From: an uncultured Acidimicrobiales bacterium
GTDB taxonomy: Bacteria > Actinomycetota > Acidimicrobiia > Acidimicrobiales > CALAML01
Reading direction: 5' to 3'
DNA length: 64,000 nt
Assembly (NCBI GenBank): GCA_937925845.1
Contig: CALAML010000150.1
Coordinates: 8,235 to 72,234, forward strand
Shown here: piece by piece, positions 10,383 to 64,000 of the stretch
How positions within the stretch are numbered: the stretch's first letter is position 1
Layout of the letters: each line of letters opens with the position of its first letter
Translations under genes and position numbers: made by a program
Notes under the pieces: generated by a model
What the model saw: the letters and a program-made list of their open reading frames with translations, nothing else
What the model was told of the DNA's origin: nothing
Database searches by the model: none

Positions 10383-11602
10383 CCCGAACCCGACTCCGCG
10401 ATACCGAATTTGTCGCGTTTATGGCCCTGGTTAGTGCGATGGGGGCGTTGGCTATCGACATGTTGCTGCCGGCATTTTCGGATATGCGGCCCGACTTTGG
10501 CCTGGCCGAGGACTCCCCGGCGCTGGGGCTGACCCTCACGCTGTTCTTCATCGGGTCGGGGATCGGCCAACTGGTCCTGGGCCCACTCGCCGATGCTGTT
10601 GGCCGCAAGCCGGTGATGGTGGCATCGATGACGCTGTATGGCCTCGGGGCGCTGGCCAGCGCTCTGGCCCCCACCCTCGGGTTTCTTTACGCGGCCCGTT
10701 TCGCCTGGGGCGTAGCCGCGGCCGGGCCGCGGGTGCTGAGCCAGGCGATTGTCCGCGACCGCTACCAGGGCGACGACATGGCGCGGGTCATGTCGCTGAT
10801 CCAGGCCATCTTCTTCCTGGGCCCCGTGGTGGCCCCGATCATCGGCGCCGGCCTCGTGGCGGTCGGCTCCTGGCGCTGGGTAATGGCCTTTGGCGTAGCC
10901 AGCGCCGCCGTGGTGTTGGCCTGGTCGACCCGCCTCGAGGAGACGCTCAGCGACCAGAACCGGCGAGCGTTTCAGATCGATGCCATCACCTCCGGATTCT
11001 CCGCGGTGTTTCGCAACCGCACCACCACCCTCTATGCCTTGTCGGTGTCGTTTTCGTTCGCCTCGATCTTTGCCTTCCTCGGCAGCGTCGAGTTGATCGT
11101 TGACGACGTGTTCGACCGGGCCGGGATCTTCGTGCCGCTCTTTTCCGTCCTCGCCCTCGGACTCGGCTTAGTGGCCTTCACCACCAACCGGCTTTTGCAA
11201 CGCACCCCGGGTCGGGTCCTGGCCCTGCGGGCAGGCGTCGCCATGCTTGCAGCCTCGGCGGTGCTCGCCGCCATCGCCCTCGCAGGAGAAGGCGAACCCA
11301 ACTTCTGGCTGTGGATCATCGTGTTCGGCGCCTGCAACGGCGCAAACGTGGCCTATTTCCCGGTGGCCACCAGCCTGGCGATGGAGCCGATGGGCGAACA
11401 GGCCGGCACCGCCGCCGCAGTTATCGGTTTCATCAGCGCGGTCATCGGCTCGGTACTGGGCGGCCTTGTGGACCGGGCCTTCGATGGCTCGGTCACACCG
11501 CTCTCGCTGAGCTTTGTCGCCTTCACCGGCGTTTCACTGGTGCTGCAGCTGTGGGCTCGCAAAGAAATGGCGGAGGTGGACGGGAATCGAACCCGCCTGT
11601 GA
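10379..11602 (+). CDS. MFS transporter (Bcr/CflA-like drug-efflux subfamily)
   Basis: ORF 10208..11602. The start at ATG 10379 overlaps the upstream stop (ATGA). MFS motif A 'GPLADAVGRKPV'. About 12 hydrophobic helices. The last ~35 nt overlap tRNA-Sec on the opposite strand. Confidence 0.85.
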   Translation: MTRTRLRDTEFVAFMALVSAMGALAIDMLLPAFSDMRPDFGLAEDSPALGLTLTLFFIGSGIGQLVLGPLADAVGRKPVMVASMTLYGLGALASALAPTLGFLYAARFAWGVAAAGPRVLSQAIVRDRYQGDDMARVMSLIQAIFFLGPVVAPIIGAGLVAVGSWRWVMAFGVASAAVVLAWSTRLEETLSDQNRRAFQIDAITSGFSAVFRNRTTTLYALSVSFSFASIFAFLGSVELIVDDVFDRAGIFVPLFSVLALGLGLVAFTTNRLLQRTPGRVLALRAGVAMLAASAVLAAIALAGEGEPNFWLWIIVFGACNGANVAYFPVATSLAMEPMGEQAGTAAAVIGFISAVIGSVLGGLVDRAFDGSVTPLSLSFVAFTGVSLVLQLWARKEMAEVDGNRTRL

Positions 11603-11663
11603 AGGATCACTCCACACACCCGCTTTGAAGGCGGGGGAGCCCACCAGGTACTCAGACACCTCC
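11568..11663 (-). tRNA. selC: tRNA-Sec (anticodon UCA)
   Basis: The reverse complement reads GGAGGTGTCTGAGTACCTGGTGGGCTCCCCCGCCTTCAAAGCGGGTGTGTGGAGTGATCCTTCACAGGCGGGTTCGATTCCCGTCCACCTCCGCCA. Anticodon stem CCCGC/GCGGG with loop CTTCAAA gives UCA. The D stem is 6 bp with a small loop, the variable arm is a long 7-bp helix (TGTGGAG/CTTCACA), the T arm is GCGGG-TTCGATT-CCCGT, the discriminator is G and CCA is encoded. This is the same architecture as E. coli selC. Confidence 0.9.
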
Positions 11664-59224: not shown

Positions 59225-59369
59225 TGTCAGCTCGCTTCGTTGATCATTGGGTTCTCTCTACAGAGTTTCGACGTTTTGGGCGCCGGGCTGAACCTCCGAG
59301 GTACCACGCAGTCTACGAGGCTCCTGTCAGGGGCTGGTTCGGTGGCCGCCAAATTGAACCCAGCGCGGG

Positions 59370-59407
59370 TTAACACAGCGTTCACAGAGGGGCAACGGTT
59401 CGGAAAT
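59370..59407 (+). promoter_or_regulatory. candidate GlnR operator: four pentamers at exact 11-bp spacing
   Basis: TTAAC(59370)-n6-TTCAC(59381)-n6-GCAAC(59392)-n6-GAAAT(59403), 104-141 nt upstream of the glnII GTG. It resembles the actinomycete GlnR box gTnAC-n6-GaAAC-n6-GtnAC-n6-GAAAC. Confidence 0.5.
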
Positions 59408-60679: not shown

Positions 60680-62032
60680 GTGACACGTGAAACAAAGAGG
60701 GAGACCGACTACGTTCTCCGCAAAGTTGAAGAGCGTGGCGTACGGCTCGTTCGCCTGTGGTTCACCGACGTGCTCGGTCAACTCAAATCCGTGGCCATCT
60801 CCCCGGCCGAACTCGAGAACGCCCTCGAAGAGGGCATGCAGGTCGACGGCTCCGCCATCGATGGCTTCAGCCGCATCCAGGAAAGCGATGTGCTGCTGAA
60901 GCCCGACCCCGAAACCTTCGAAACACTGCCCTGGGGCGACCCCAACGAGGTGTCGGCCCGCATGTTCTGCGACGTGTTGACCCCAACCGGCAACCCGTTC
61001 GAAGGCGATCCCCGTCAAGTGCTGCGCCGCAACCTCGACCGGGCCCACGACCTCGGCTACAGCTTCCTCGTAGCCCCGGAGATGGAGTACTTCTACTTCG
61101 CCAACGGCGACCCCACCAGCCCGCCCCAACCCCTCGACAGCGGCTCCTACTTCGACCTCACCACCCTCGACGTCGCCGACGACATCCGCAAACGCACCCT
61201 CGGCATGCTCGAGGCGATGGGCATTCCGGTCGAATACTCCTTCCACGAAGACGCCCCCAGCCAGCACGAGATCGACCTGCGTTACACCGACGCTCTCACC
61301 ATGGCCGACAACGTGATGACCTTCCGGCTCACCGTTCGCGAAATCGCCTACGAGCGCGGGGCCTACGCCACCTTCATGCCCAAGCCCCTCTCAGGCGTGC
61401 AGGGCTCCGGCATGCACACCCACCTGTCGCTCTTCGACACCACCGGTGAAAACAACGCCTTCCATGACCCCAGCACCGAGCTTGGCCTCTCGACCGTTGG
61501 CCGCCAGTTCATCGCCGGCCTCCTGGTCCACGCCCCCGAAATCACCGCTGTCACCAACCAACTAGTCAACTCCTACAAGCGGCTGATCGTCGGCTACGAA
61601 GCACCCACCTACGTGAGTTGGGCCCGCAACAACCGATCGGCTCTGGTGCGAGTACCGATCACCAAGCCCGAAAAGTCGACCTCCACCCGCATCGAATACC
61701 GAGCCCCCGACCCAGCATGCAACCCCTACCTGGCCTTCTCCTGCATGCTTGCCGCCGGCCTCAAAGGCATCGAAGAGGGCTACGAACTCGGGCCCGAATC
61801 ATCGAACAACGTCTTCGAGATGAGCGACTCCGAGCGCCGCGACGCTGGCATCGAACCACTGCCCCAGTCGCTCGATGCCGCGCTGCGAGCCATGGAAGGC
61901 TCCAGCCTCGTGGCCGAAACCCTCGGGGAACACATCTTTGAATGGTTCCTGCGAAACAAGAGGGCCGAGTGGCGCGACTACAAAGCCCATGTGAGCCAGT
62001 TCGAACTCGATCGCTACCTCCAGGCCTGGTAG
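60680..62032 (+). CDS. glnA: glutamine synthetase type I (GlnA/GlnA2-like)
   Basis: 'VRLWFTDVLGQLKSVAI', 'VDGSAIDGF', 'FHEDAPSQHEIDL' and 'GSGMHTHLSL'. 450 aa. Confidence 0.9.
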   Translation: MTRETKRETDYVLRKVEERGVRLVRLWFTDVLGQLKSVAISPAELENALEEGMQVDGSAIDGFSRIQESDVLLKPDPETFETLPWGDPNEVSARMFCDVLTPTGNPFEGDPRQVLRRNLDRAHDLGYSFLVAPEMEYFYFANGDPTSPPQPLDSGSYFDLTTLDVADDIRKRTLGMLEAMGIPVEYSFHEDAPSQHEIDLRYTDALTMADNVMTFRLTVREIAYERGAYATFMPKPLSGVQGSGMHTHLSLFDTTGENNAFHDPSTELGLSTVGRQFIAGLLVHAPEITAVTNQLVNSYKRLIVGYEAPTYVSWARNNRSALVRVPITKPEKSTSTRIEYRAPDPACNPYLAFSCMLAAGLKGIEEGYELGPESSNNVFEMSDSERRDAGIEPLPQSLDAALRAMEGSSLVAETLGEHIFEWFLRNKRAEWRDYKAHVSQFELDRYLQAW

Positions 62033-62706
62033 TGGACCCCCTGCTCGTCTACCCCGACCCGCCGCCGCGGGAGCTGGTCCAAACCCTGGACCTGGCCGGC
62101 TACGCCTGGGAACCCCTGGGCGGCGACGGCAGCGACGTGGTTGGCGACAGCTGGGCCGGCGCCATCGTGTGCGCCAATGAAGACCCCGAAGGGGCCTGGG
62201 CGGTGTGTCGAGCCCTGCGAAAAAGAGAGGTTCCCATCGAGCCGCTTCTGCTGCTGGTGGCCGGCACCCAACTCGACGAACTCGACCTCCGCAACGAGCT
62301 CTTCGACGACTTCTGCCTGGCCCCGTTCCACCCGCGAGAACTCGAAGCCCGCATGCGACACCTGTCGTGGCGCACCGGCCAGGAGACCCGACCCGACACC
62401 GTCGAATACGGCCCCCTCGCCCTCAACCTCGAGACCTACCAGGCCGCCCTCGACGGTGAACCGCTCGACCTCACCTACATGGAATACGAGCTGCTCACCT
62501 TCCTCGCCTCCAACCCCGGCAAAGTCTTCAGCCGCGACACGCTGCTAAGCCGCGTGTGGGGTTATGAGTACTACGGCGGCGCCAGAACCGTCGACGTTCA
62601 CATCCGCCGCCTCCGCGCCAAACTCGGCGAAAAACACTCCGGCCTCATCAACACCGTCCGCTCCGTCGGCTACAGCTTCGGCCAATCCCGCTGGGGAGGG
62701 CTCTAA
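62032..62706 (+). CDS. glnR: OmpR-family orphan response regulator GlnR (global nitrogen regulator)
   Basis: ORF opens at 61942 inside glnA. The in-frame GTG 62032 overlaps the glnA stop by 1 nt. The winged helix 'LDLTYMEYELLTFLASNPGKVFSRDTLLSRVWGYEYYGGARTVDVHIRRLRAKLG...TVRSVGYSF' closely resembles Streptomyces GlnR as I recall it. The location next to glnA fits. Confidence 0.85.
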   Translation: MDPLLVYPDPPPRELVQTLDLAGYAWEPLGGDGSDVVGDSWAGAIVCANEDPEGAWAVCRALRKREVPIEPLLLLVAGTQLDELDLRNELFDDFCLAPFHPRELEARMRHLSWRTGQETRPDTVEYGPLALNLETYQAALDGEPLDLTYMEYELLTFLASNPGKVFSRDTLLSRVWGYEYYGGARTVDVHIRRLRAKLGEKHSGLINTVRSVGYSFGQSRWGGL

Positions 62707-62721
62707 CTGCCCTCCGGGCCA

Positions 62722-62811
62722 GCCGTTGCACGGAGCTTTTGGCTGGCCTTTGGGCCTTACTTACACTTTGGCGCTTTGGGTTACGCCTTACGCCGCGCCT
62801 GGCAGCTGCGC
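62722..62811 (+). repeat. short (internally deleted) copy of the ~230-bp structured intergenic repeat
   Basis: Contains GGAGCTTTTGGCTGGCCTTTGG joined directly to CCTTACTTACACTTTGGCGCTTTGGGTTACGCCTTACGCCGC and the TGGCAGCTGCGC boundary word. Confidence 0.8.
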
Positions 62812-63040
62812 CTCACGTCGTCTCGCCGTTGCACTGTGCTCCGCACGGCCAGGAACCCCAGAGGCACCCCAGGCGCCGACGGGTTCCCTTGCACAGGAGC
62901 TTTTGGCTGGCCTTTGGGGCCCCGTCCCACTCGCCGGACGGGGTGCCTTTGCCCGTCGGCCAGCCAGCCTTACTTGGCTCACGCTCTACCTACACTTTGG
63001 CGCTTTGGGTTACGCCTTACGCCGCCTTTGGCAGTTGGTT
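62812..63040 (+). repeat. full-length copy A of the ~230-bp structured intergenic repeat
   Basis: The copy runs CGTCGTCTCGCCGTTGCACTGTGCTCCGCACGGCCAGGAACCCCAGAGGCACCCCAGGCGCCGACGGGTTCCCTTGCACAGGAGCTTTTGGCTGGCCTTTGG...CACTTTGGCGCTTTGGGTTACGCCTTACGCCGCCTTTGGCAG. Internal stems are GGAACCC/GGGTTCC and CCCCGTCC/GGACGGGG. Confidence 0.85.
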
Positions 63041-63638
63041 AGGCGGCTTCTCCGCAGGTCACTCCTGGGTTGGTTCCGTGGACGTGGTTGTGGCCGTCGT
63101 CGGCTACTTCTTCTTCCATGGCTTCGTCTTCTTCCATTTCCATTTCTTCCATGGCGTCGTCCTCCTCCATCTCCATGGCGCCCTCTTCTTCGCCGTCTTC
63201 GGCTTCTAGGGTTTCTCCCATTCCTACGGCGTGGACCATTACGTAGGTTCCTTCTCGCAGGGTTCCCTCGGCGGCTTCGATGCTTACGTCGGCTTTGACG
63301 TTGCCGTCGGCGTCGGCTTCGAGATCGGGGAAGTCGATCAGATGGTTGCTGGTCCGATCTTCCTCGGCACAACCAAAAGTGCCCTCCGCTTCGCCGTGGA
63401 GATGCATGGCGTGGGCGGTGTTGGGCTCGAAGCCCGAGAGCTCAATGGAGCCGGTCACCTGGTCGCCGTCCTGTGAGAGTTCGGCCGAACCGGTCACCCC
63501 GGAGTCTTCGAGGGCGCTCAAGGTGAAGGTGTGGCTGGCGGCACCCTCTTCGCTGCTATCGCCACACGCCGCGGCGATCAGCGCAAACGGCGCAGCGGCA
63601 AGGAAGGCAAGTCGAGCAGGGGTAAGACGGCTTCGCAT
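63039..63638 (-). CDS. Cu/Zn-superoxide-dismutase-like lipoprotein with Met/Glu/His-rich C-terminal tail
   Basis: Part of ORF 63039..63983. I use ATG 63638, which has GGGGAG immediately upstream. Lipobox 'LIAAAC'. 'HAMHLHGEAEGTFGC' resembles the SodC 'HGFHxHxxGxC' motif, and 'YVMVHAVG' is also present. The tail reads 'GAMEMEEDDAMEEMEMEEDEAMEEEVADDGHNHVHG'. Confidence 0.7.
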   Translation of the reverse strand: MRSRLTPARLAFLAAAPFALIAAACGDSSEEGAASHTFTLSALEDSGVTGSAELSQDGDQVTGSIELSGFEPNTAHAMHLHGEAEGTFGCAEEDRTSNHLIDFPDLEADADGNVKADVSIEAAEGTLREGTYVMVHAVGMGETLEAEDGEEEGAMEMEEDDAMEEMEMEEDEAMEEEVADDGHNHVHGTNPGVTCGEAA

Positions 63639-63726
63639 CTCCCCAACCTTAGAATCTGTCCCCAAGACCGCTTGGTCAGAAGCTCCGCCCAGCCAGTGAA
63701 CATCGTCACACCGACCCGCCACCAAC

Positions 63727-63990
63727 GACGCAACGCGCAGCTGCCAACGACGCAACGCGCAGCTGCCAAACGCGGCGAAAAACGTAACCCAAAGCGCCAA
63801 AGAGTAAGTATGACGCAAGCCAAGAGGACGGCTGGCCGACGTGCGGAGGCACCCACGTGGGCGCCGAGGGACAGGGCACCAAAGGCCAGCCAAAAGCTCC
63901 TGTGCAAGGGAACCCGTCGACGCCTGGGGCGCCTCTGGGGTTCCTGGCCGTGCGGAGCACAGTGGTACGGCGAGACGACGCAAGCCGCAG
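63727..63990 (-). repeat. full-length copy B of the ~230-bp repeat, inverted relative to copy A, with a duplicated 22-bp boundary word
   Basis: The reverse complement of 63790-63990 aligns to copy A at roughly 85% identity by eye (GTCGTCTCGCCGTACCACTGTGCTCCGCACGGCCAGGAACCCCAGAGGCGCCCCAGGCGTCGACGGGTTCCCTTGCACAGGAGCTTTTGGCTGGCCTTTGG...). ACGACGCAACGCGCAGCTGCCA occurs twice in tandem at 63727-63770. Confidence 0.85.
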
Positions 63991-64000
63991 GTCCCAAACG

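Follow-up and report, generated by a model that had tools for sequence, protein, structure and literature searches.

The end of a 64,000-nucleotide stretch of DNA from an uncultured Acidimicrobiales bacterium (the window, by which the whole stretch is meant throughout) carries a region, 62722-64000, in which copies of a 229-bp repeat flank a gene for a lipoprotein resembling copper-zinc superoxide dismutase (Cu,Zn-SOD). Upstream of this region, on the + strand, the gene order is glnII, glnA and a GlnR-like orphan response regulator, and the repeat block starts 3-16 nt past the stop codon of the regulator. A shortened copy (S) and a full copy (A) separate the regulator from the SOD-like gene, which is read from the - strand, and a second full copy (B), inverted relative to A, lies on the far side of that gene (Table 1). 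This arrangement had been described in a sequence-only reading of the region and is borne out by BLAST and by alignment. The enclosed coding sequence, as had been supposed, is a real gene with homologues in other organisms.

Table 1. Positions of the repeat copies, their internal modules and the neighbouring features. Coordinates are those of the window except in the last row, where they are those of the named loci.
Feature	Position	Strand	Evidence or remark
GlnR-like orphan response regulator	62032-62706	+	Pfam Trans_reg_C, E 2.8e-27; weak GlnR_1st match
Copy S, degenerate unit	62722-62799	+	BLAST, gap-tolerant alignment, sequence reading
Copy A, full 229-bp unit	62800-63028	+	85% identity to B; start-to-start spacing of 229 to the homologous tail of S
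Hairpin 2 of A, outer stem GGAACCC/GGGTTCC, inner stem GGCACC/GGCGCC	62852-62887	+	DNA fold z
TTTGG-N6-TTTGG motif	62902-62917	+	Without differences among S, A and B (100% identity)
Central 64-nt imperfect palindrome of A	62904-62967	+	DNA fold z
Second pair, TTTGG-N3-TTTGG	62996-63008	+	100% conserved in S, A and B
Stub of next unit after A, first 9 nt (TGGCAGTTG)	63029-63037	+	Abuts the stop codon of the SOD-like gene
Enclosed SOD-like lipoprotein gene, 199 aa	63039-63638	-	Homologues P0122 and P0123 at 52-66% identity
Unique promoter-proximal region of the SOD-like gene, 86 bp	63639-63724	-	Sequence
CRP/FNR(GlxR)-type palindrome TGTGA-N6-TCACT, minus-strand TGTGACGATGTTCACT	63695-63710	-	Pattern scan
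22-bp unit start (TGGCAGCTGCGCGTTGCGTCGT) twice in perfect tandem, innermost part of the B array	63725-63768	-	TRF
Copy B, full unit, inverted relative to A	63769-63996	-	BLAST, repeat search, alignments
Central palindrome of B, with a different apical hairpin (GGCGCCCAC/GTGGGTGCC)	about 63829-63893	-	DNA fold z
Sister-lineage repeat tracts	L093 12040-12331; L099 12040-12293		90-bp unit with a 49-bp perfect repeat; ~45-bp CTTTGGCYTTGCTCGCGC motif

The two full copies are clearly related. In a BLAST comparison, A (62800-63037, +) and B (63996-63760, -) are 85% identical over 240 columns (E 5e-71), the value that had been estimated by eye, and a repeat search of the window recovered the same inverted arms as 129 nt at 91% plus 65-72 nt at 82-83%. 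When A was compared with the window by BLAST, copy S appeared as two segments, 62723-62754 (94% identical to A 62886-62918) and 62758-62808 (90% identical to A 62987-63037); the relationships of S, A and B from the repeat search agree with a three-way alignment. Differences between A and B are unevenly spread, with 4 of 102 columns changed in the 5' module against 31 of 139 elsewhere (Fisher p 3e-5), which leaves a tract of ~100 bp at 96% identity and a remainder at about 78%. The longest identical runs are 41 and 34 bp.

Units are joined head to tail with a period of 229 bp, the end of one (...CGCCGCSTT) running into the start of the next (TGGCAGCTGCGC..CGTCGT). Such a join is found at the S/A junction, in the 9-nt stub after A and in the duplicated 22-nt stub after B. 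The full unit on the regulator side starts at 62800 rather than at 62812, where the earlier reading had it. The tandem duplication of the boundary word TGGCAGCTGCGC in B was correctly seen: TRF reports a 22-bp segment that contains it in 2.2 copies with 100% matches (63722-63769). The ends of the arrays differ, A stopping 9 nt into the next unit and B after 22 nt twice over, and no defined element ends can be recognized. B is cut by the end of the window; since the last four bases, 63997-64000 (CGTT on the - strand), correspond to the 3' end of a unit before it, the B array probably continues past the window. A fold-back of the contig end during assembly was considered as the source of the inverted arms and was rejected because the arms are only 85% identical.

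Copy S corresponds to a unit minus three internal deletions, each bounded by direct-repeat microhomologies (TTGCAC, GCC and TACYT). Missing from it are hairpin 2, the central palindrome and 16 nt of the tail, while both TTTGG-pair motifs and the rest of the 3' tail are kept. Two of the three deletions take out exactly the hairpin-forming modules. Deletions bounded by direct repeats, together with the loss of hairpins, are the signature of replication slippage across hairpins, and S is a clean example of hairpin modules lost in this way. Tandem junctions, a perfect 22-bp duplication and the loss of hairpins between microhomologies thus show that the repeat amplifies and decays by slippage. These features, with the patchy identity of A and B, which suggests gene conversion, justify the description of the region as recombinogenic in the sequence-only reading.

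The full unit is built from the junction word, a pair of small hairpins, the two TTTGG pairs, the imperfect palindrome of 64 nt and a T-rich tail without structure. Its sense strand is strongly depleted in A (9-11% A, with an AT-skew of -0.33 to -0.51 vs +0.06 for the window), which explains why no sense frame of either unit is closed by a stop codon and why the repeats generate the long spurious open reading frames (ORFs) that had been remarked upon. Periodicity by codon position was not found in the units (p 0.17 and 0.72), against a GC3-GC2 difference of ~0.4 in glnA and the regulator, and on this ground an origin as former coding sequence was rejected. Indels between A and B break the reading frame.

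The pentamer TTTGG occurs five times per unit, always on the sense strand and at conserved positions with zero occurrences on the antisense strand, against a background of 0.7 per kb per strand; it is about 30-fold enriched in the repeats. Matches to TTTGG-N3-7-TTTGG number seven in the window, six of them in the repeats, where 0.29 would be expected. Clustered sites for a DNA-binding protein that recognizes CTTTGG direct repeats, forming a regulatory, decoy or architectural array on both sides of the SOD-like gene, would account for this enrichment on one strand and for the complete conservation of the pairs, even in the decayed copy S. One pair is spaced by 11 bp, and such a spacing is one helical turn, as for winged-helix dimers. 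However, the promoters of the nearby nitrogen genes lack the motif and have GTnAC-type boxes in its place, the window outside the repeats is practically free of motif pairs, in relatives the same gene is regulated with no such array, and no candidate binding protein was identified. A protein-binding array is therefore regarded as highly improbable. A tie between the repeat and the GlnR-like regulator was likewise rejected, the glnII promoter having GTnAC-type boxes and not TTTGG. The words in question (GTTAAC...GTTCAC...GCAAC, in the region 59360-59400 upstream of glnII) appear to resemble actinobacterial GlnR boxes (GTnAC-n6-GaAAC).

The unit had also been called highly structured. This applies to the central palindrome, which is more stable than shuffled sequences on the sense strand (DNA z -3.8 in A and -2.5 in B) and on the antisense strand (-2.6 and -1.6). 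It does not apply to the unit as a whole, which folds no better than shuffles (RNA z -1.47, -1.65, -1.0 and +0.34), and the 69-nt 3' tail is unstructured (z about 0). In A, the conserved 9-bp stem of the palindrome (TGGCTGGCC/GGCCAGCCA) is prolonged by a 4-bp extension and capped by an 8-bp hairpin (CCCCGTCC/GGACGGGG). The apex forms a hairpin in B as well, from differing sequence and in a shifted register (GGCGCCCAC/GTGGGTGCC), in agreement with the variable central hairpin of the earlier description. The GGAACCC/GGGTTCC stem of hairpin 2 is indeed present in both full copies; its fold is marginal (DNA z -1.3 in A and -2.3 in B), and the two A/B differences within it are single-sided and weaken the stem instead of compensating. 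Double changes between A and B total two to three in this comparison of two sequences, and only one of them, a G-C to T-A change in the 4-bp extension of the palindrome, sits in a credible helix.

These observations bear on the possibility that the unit acts at the level of RNA, either as the 3' untranslated region (UTR) of the glnA-regulator operon (S and A) and of a 52-aa gene (B) or as a family of small RNA genes. As a 3' UTR it might serve as a terminator, as a barrier to 3' exonucleases or as a protein-binding platform through its UUUGG motifs. The stability of the central palindrome in both copies despite a differing apex, the G-C to U-A double change in the stem extension and the strict strand specificity and full conservation of the TTTGG motifs are all in keeping with such a role, as are the common orientation of both arrays with the upstream gene and the position of S and A in place of a simple bidirectional hairpin in the relatives. 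Against it stand the fold of the whole unit and the single-sided, weakening changes in hairpin 2. Copy S, moreover, has been retained though it has lost both hairpins. Rfam gave nothing relevant even at E<=1, and a covariance model of the structured core (R1), run over 1.33 Mb of related loci including the syntenic spacers, found the window copies only, its best foreign match scoring 19 bits (E 0.2). Neither a sigma-70-like promoter nor a hairpin-plus-T-run terminator lies inside the units according to a consensus scan, which captures actinobacterial signals poorly. Covariation is nearly powerless with two full sequences. A function in RNA is on balance unlikely, and the proposal of a structured RNA family in the sequence-only reading is not upheld.

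The history of the locus can be read from its closest relatives, L096 and L097, in which the regulator is 88% and the C terminus of GlnA 90% identical to those of the window. Both carry the homologue that is 52% identical to the enclosed protein, in the same gene order: glnA, the regulator and a convergent SOD-like gene preceded by a 52-aa gene. The spacers in these relatives are short, with 54 bp containing one simple hairpin between the stop codons and 105 bp upstream of the SOD-like gene, and neither contains the repeat. The corresponding spacers of the window measure 332 bp (S and A) and at least 360 bp (86 unique bp and the B array), so that S and A stand where the relatives have a simple bidirectional hairpin between convergent genes. 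The SOD-like gene has the same orientation in the window and in L096/L097. Because these loci are syntenic without repeats, the gene and its promoter-proximal region must be ancestral at the site, and the repeats were gained later on both sides.

This comparison speaks against the view of the region as a composite, mobilizable or invertible cassette, either a composite-transposon-like unit or a recombinational switch. The attraction of that view lies in the inverted repeats of about 240 bp around a 0.7-kb gene segment, in the identical runs of 41 and 34 bp, which could allow rare RecA-dependent exchange, and in the patchy identity, which fits conversion between the arms. The gene, however, was not brought in by the repeats, since it occupies the same locus in the same orientation in relatives free of them, and a mobilized cassette is thereby ruled out. 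The units have no coding capacity and no recombinase or transposase is encoded in the 15 kb upstream; arms at 85% identity would recombine too poorly to invert often. For the gene to be parted from its conserved promoter-proximal region by inversion, the breakpoints would have to lie inside the unique 86-bp segment, which is not the case. Taken with its switch variant, the cassette has only the faintest probability. The unchanged orientation of the gene has a further consequence: inversion of the segment cannot have produced the inverted copy, and a copy-paste step is needed.

Such a step would be natural if S, A and B were local members of a dispersed, non-autonomous family (REP/BIME-, BOX- or PATE-like; REP, repetitive extragenic palindromic; BIME, bacterial interspersed mosaic element), mobilized in trans by an enzyme whose gene lies elsewhere in the genome, tending to insert just downstream of genes and then amplified in tandem. 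Two spacers have been colonized without duplication of the 686 bp between them, and inversion alone fails as an explanation given the orientation of the gene. In both arrays the A-poor strand is the sense strand of the gene just upstream (for B, as judged from synteny with L096), and hairpin modules are typical of such elements. A sister lineage, described below, has other repeat DNA of the same odd strand composition at the same site.

The searches for further copies speak against dispersal. No other unit was detected by blastn (word size 7), nhmmer or self-BLAST in the remaining 62.7 kb of the window (~55 genes), where the sole other internal similarities are between paralogous genes at 64-68% identity, or by blastn and nhmmer in 80 syntenic Acidimicrobiia loci (1.2 Mb). 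A 20-mer from the repeat core had 0 matches in GTDB species-representative genomes, and 22-mer and 18-mer cores had 0 in IMG/VR. The 12 matches of the 18-mer core in JGI metagenomes are all due to chance, spanning <=33 bp in DNA of unsuitable GC content. In 'distant' mode, a BLAST search with the entire stretch 62700-64000 returned nothing from plasmids or phages. A six-frame pseudo-protein of A and B gave 8000 word-sharing candidates among 5.8 billion predicted proteins, none at E<=0.001, even though this collection includes P0121, which is 100% identical to the enclosed 199-aa protein and comes from the source contig. The organism itself is an Acidimicrobiales bacterium without close sequenced relatives, as judged by its protein sequences: identity does not exceed 73% for the regulator in GTDB species representatives or 84% for GlnA in the 5.8 billion proteins.

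Nor do the ends of the units resemble those of a mobile element. The first 40 nt scored 5 against the reverse complement of the last 40 nt, the shuffled mean being 5.2-6.1 (A, B and the S+A block), and thus show no terminal inverted repeats; the ends are instead direct repeats (TGGCAGCTG...TGGCAGTTG). No direct repeat of >=4 bp that could represent a target-site duplication flanks the S+A block at any plausible boundary; the outer end of B lies beyond the window. A transposase, integrase, invertase or REP-associated tyrosine transposase (RAYT) is not encoded in the nearest 15 kb of the window, upstream of the repeats. With the defined ends, the terminal repeats and the target duplications of such families all missing, a dispersed family appears possible and somewhat unlikely. 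A diversity-generating retroelement, with A and B as template and variable repeats, was also rejected, as the changes between A and B show no preference for adenines and a reverse transcriptase is lacking.

The sister lineage comprises loci L093, L094, L095 and L099, where GlnA is 84% identical and other tandem motifs follow the regulator (Table 1). The 90-bp unit is present in two copies in L093 and in one in L099, which come from different samples. These motifs match the repeats of the window in strand composition (A 9-11%, AT-skew -0.36 to -0.47) and cannot be aligned to them: Smith-Waterman scores equal those of shuffled controls, and nhmmer and the covariance model found nothing. A homology seen by eye between the unit and the L093/L099 spacer (CTTTGGCCTTGCTCGCGCACGCCGTTCACTG against TTTGGCAGCTGCGC..CGCCGTTGCACTG) was rejected on these results. 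The parallel nevertheless marks the spacer after the regulator as a hot spot for repeat DNA of this kind, and the shared A-poor composition could reflect either convergence or a very fast-evolving class of element. It is not a property of the clade as a whole. The notion of a clade-wide A-poor spacer was rejected for all but the L093/L099 lineage, as 81 loci have a median AT-skew of +0.03; low skew was otherwise confined to L083 and L029, which have no notable repeats there, and in L083 a long ORF runs through the stretch. The contigs of L093, L094 and L095 end 60-290 bp past the regulator, inside the repeat region, which is a sign that this spacer disrupts short-read assembly in these genomes. 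As evidence of a multi-copy repeat the contig ends were set aside, and they point only weakly to local repeat trouble, since the three loci, by their names, apparently belong to one sample and L099, from another, reads through the spacer into a different gene.

A broader proposal would unite the units of the window with the L093/L099 repeats in an undescribed class of intergenic elements of this uncultured Acidimicrobiales clade. Such elements would be fast-evolving, strand-asymmetric (~10% A on the sense strand), rich in TTTG(G) and hairpin-bearing, would sit right after stop codons in the sense of the upstream gene, and would either act in RNA as 3'-UTR terminators, stabilizers or protein-binding modules or spread by an orientation-sensitive mechanism. 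We consider this class unlikely.

The explanation that we favour, at roughly even probability, is that S, A and B belong to a modular 229-bp repeat, non-coding and specific to this lineage, minisatellite-like or BIME/BOX-like, that has gathered around a resident SOD-like gene. It behaves as repeat material at the level of DNA and not as a gene, an RNA family or a transposon with defined ends. Head-to-tail copies with slippage-type gain and loss, both seen here, are what characterizes a minisatellite or variable-number tandem repeat (VNTR). One copy-paste event would have carried a single unit or a whole array, reversed in orientation, into the spacer next to it, by ectopic recombination, template switching or mobilization in trans. 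Gene conversion between the inverted copies would then keep the ~100-bp tract at 96% identity, as the patchy distribution of differences suggests. Its position directly behind stop codons and upstream of the promoter-proximal operator is presumably why the repeat DNA is tolerated, and it probably has little or no function of its own.

Several points weigh against this explanation. The search for copies in the source genome spans the 64-kb window only, and the family may be a dispersed one. Slippage and inversion are insufficient to produce the arrangement, and some copy-paste step is required. The differences in the 3' tail common to all three copies are roughly star-like (three unique to A, four to B and two to S), which indicates copies of some age that have nonetheless escaped removal. 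There are also hints of constraint, as opposed to pure drift, in the conserved 5' tract, in the TTTGG pairs preserved in all three copies, in the one compensatory change, in the apical hairpin that is kept despite its change of sequence and in the co-orientation of the A-poor strand of both arrays with the upstream gene.

Although the repeat matches no known family, its kind is that of the well-known bacterial intergenic repeats. The REP and BIME sequences of enterobacteria and pseudomonads, which are mobilized by RAYTs, are likewise extragenic and non-coding, typically lie just after stop codons and often between convergent genes, contain hairpin-forming modules and form clusters with copies in both orientations. 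A REP, however, is a palindrome of 20-40 bp with a conserved 5' tetranucleotide, present in hundreds of copies, whereas the unit described here is a 229-bp composite in which only the 64-nt core is palindromic and a long tail is unstructured; the other 62.7 kb hold no further copy of it, and the nearest 15 kb no visible RAYT gene. In BIMEs the orientation changes within the cluster, while here it changes across a gene and S and A are co-oriented. The label REP-like in the sequence-only reading is reasonable in the sense of a non-coding repeat family with hairpin modules and fails on unit size and alternating orientation.

The BOX elements of Streptococcus pneumoniae (boxA-boxB(n)-boxC) offer a parallel in being modular, ~100-300 bp long, non-coding and intergenic, with a stable secondary structure, internal modules that vary in copy number, no transposase of their own and no classical terminal inverted repeats. 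They differ in having >100 dispersed copies per genome and defined terminal modules, belong to another phylum and have no sequence similarity to the unit, the copies of which are known from one locus. Closer in phylogeny are the mycobacterial interspersed repetitive units (MIRU/VNTR, 40-100 bp), which are actinobacterial, intergenic and arranged head to tail, are gained and lost by slippage and show perfect recent duplications beside decayed copies; the sister-lineage array, polymorphic in copy number between L093 and L099, behaves similarly. MIRUs are shorter, however, lie within operons in one orientation and have small ORFs coupled to the flanking genes, in contrast to a hairpin-rich 229-bp unit that occupies two spacers in opposite orientation. 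Miniature inverted-repeat transposable elements (MITEs), such as the Correia elements of Neisseria and the ERIC/IRU elements of enterobacteria, share a length of 100-300 bp, a non-coding, intergenic and foldable nature and the generation of spurious ORFs. They insert as single units with terminal inverted repeats and target-site duplications; neither is present here, the terminal repeats being at the level of the shuffled null, and the units form head-to-tail arrays, so the suggestion of a MITE was dropped.

The protein encoded by the enclosed gene appears to be a remote relative of Cu,Zn-SOD. Sod_Cu of Pfam matches with E 3.5e-5 at 24.7 bits, under the curated cut-off of 28.9, and a PDB profile comparison with Cu,Zn-SODs gives E 0.005 in the N-terminal half only. 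In Foldseek every top match is a Cu,Zn-SOD, from a model with a pLDDT (predicted local distance difference test score) of 52, which points to a Cu,Zn-SOD-like β-barrel. The H-x-H and VMVH motifs are present, ligands of the Zn loop are not evident in the sequence, and a long, acidic C-terminal tail is rich in Met and His (MEMEEDDAMEEMEMEEDEAMEEE...HNHVHG). The protein may thus be a copper-only SOD-like or a copper-binding surface protein. It is rare, with three clusters among the 5.8 billion proteins, two of which are the homologues.

A CRP/FNR-type palindrome is centred about 65 nt upstream of the start codon of the SOD-like gene, and the repeat DNA of the B array begins about 14 nt upstream of it. 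The pattern has two matches in the window against 1.26 expected, which is statistically not unusual. Equivalent palindromes (AGTGACAATATTCACA and CGTGACGACTGTCACA, TGTGA-N6-TCAC(T/A)) were recognized on visual inspection of L096/L097 (about 1560-1575 in L096) and L098 (about 230-250), equally far from the start codon, and it is this conservation across loci that is suggestive and not the match in the window.

The most likely start of the regulator is a GTG at 62032 that shares bases with the stop codon of glnA (TAGTG, 62030-62034) and gives a protein of 224 aa, as in the relatives; this overlap hints at coupled translation. The gene is shorter than its longest ORF, which begins at 61942. Beyond L096, the identity of the regulator falls to 73-74% in L013, L093 and L099. 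Elsewhere in the window, the sole tRNA gene is that for the selenocysteine tRNA (tRNA-SeC, anticodon TCA, 11568-11663, -), which implies selenoprotein synthesis in this organism. Three tandem paralogous pairs account for the internal similarities at 64-68% DNA identity (50890-52299/52402-53844, -; 28540-29282/29643-30376; 31022-31384/31708-32070). The first pair consists of two sulfatases, adjoined by a sulfotransferase, a GT2 glycosyltransferase and an ABC-2 exporter, and the group looks like a sulfated-polysaccharide locus.

The presence of the repeat has consequences for annotation and assembly. A 314-aa spurious ORF spans copy B into the SOD-like gene, and it is likely that gene callers disagree on the start of this gene for that reason, which, if true, would be a direct example of a repeat confusing annotation. 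Repeats of this kind can break or confuse short-read assemblies and shift the apparent starts of genes. At the locus itself, the repeat took the place of a simple bidirectional terminator hairpin between two convergent genes, and, lying so close to a conserved CRP-type site, it may alter expression of a lipoprotein connected with copper and oxidative stress. The repeat would matter more only if the family were dispersed or transcribed into a discrete RNA. If the favoured explanation is true, it is ordinary genome 'filler', a further intergenic repeat confined to one lineage, in a class of bacteria that has been little studied and is largely uncultured.

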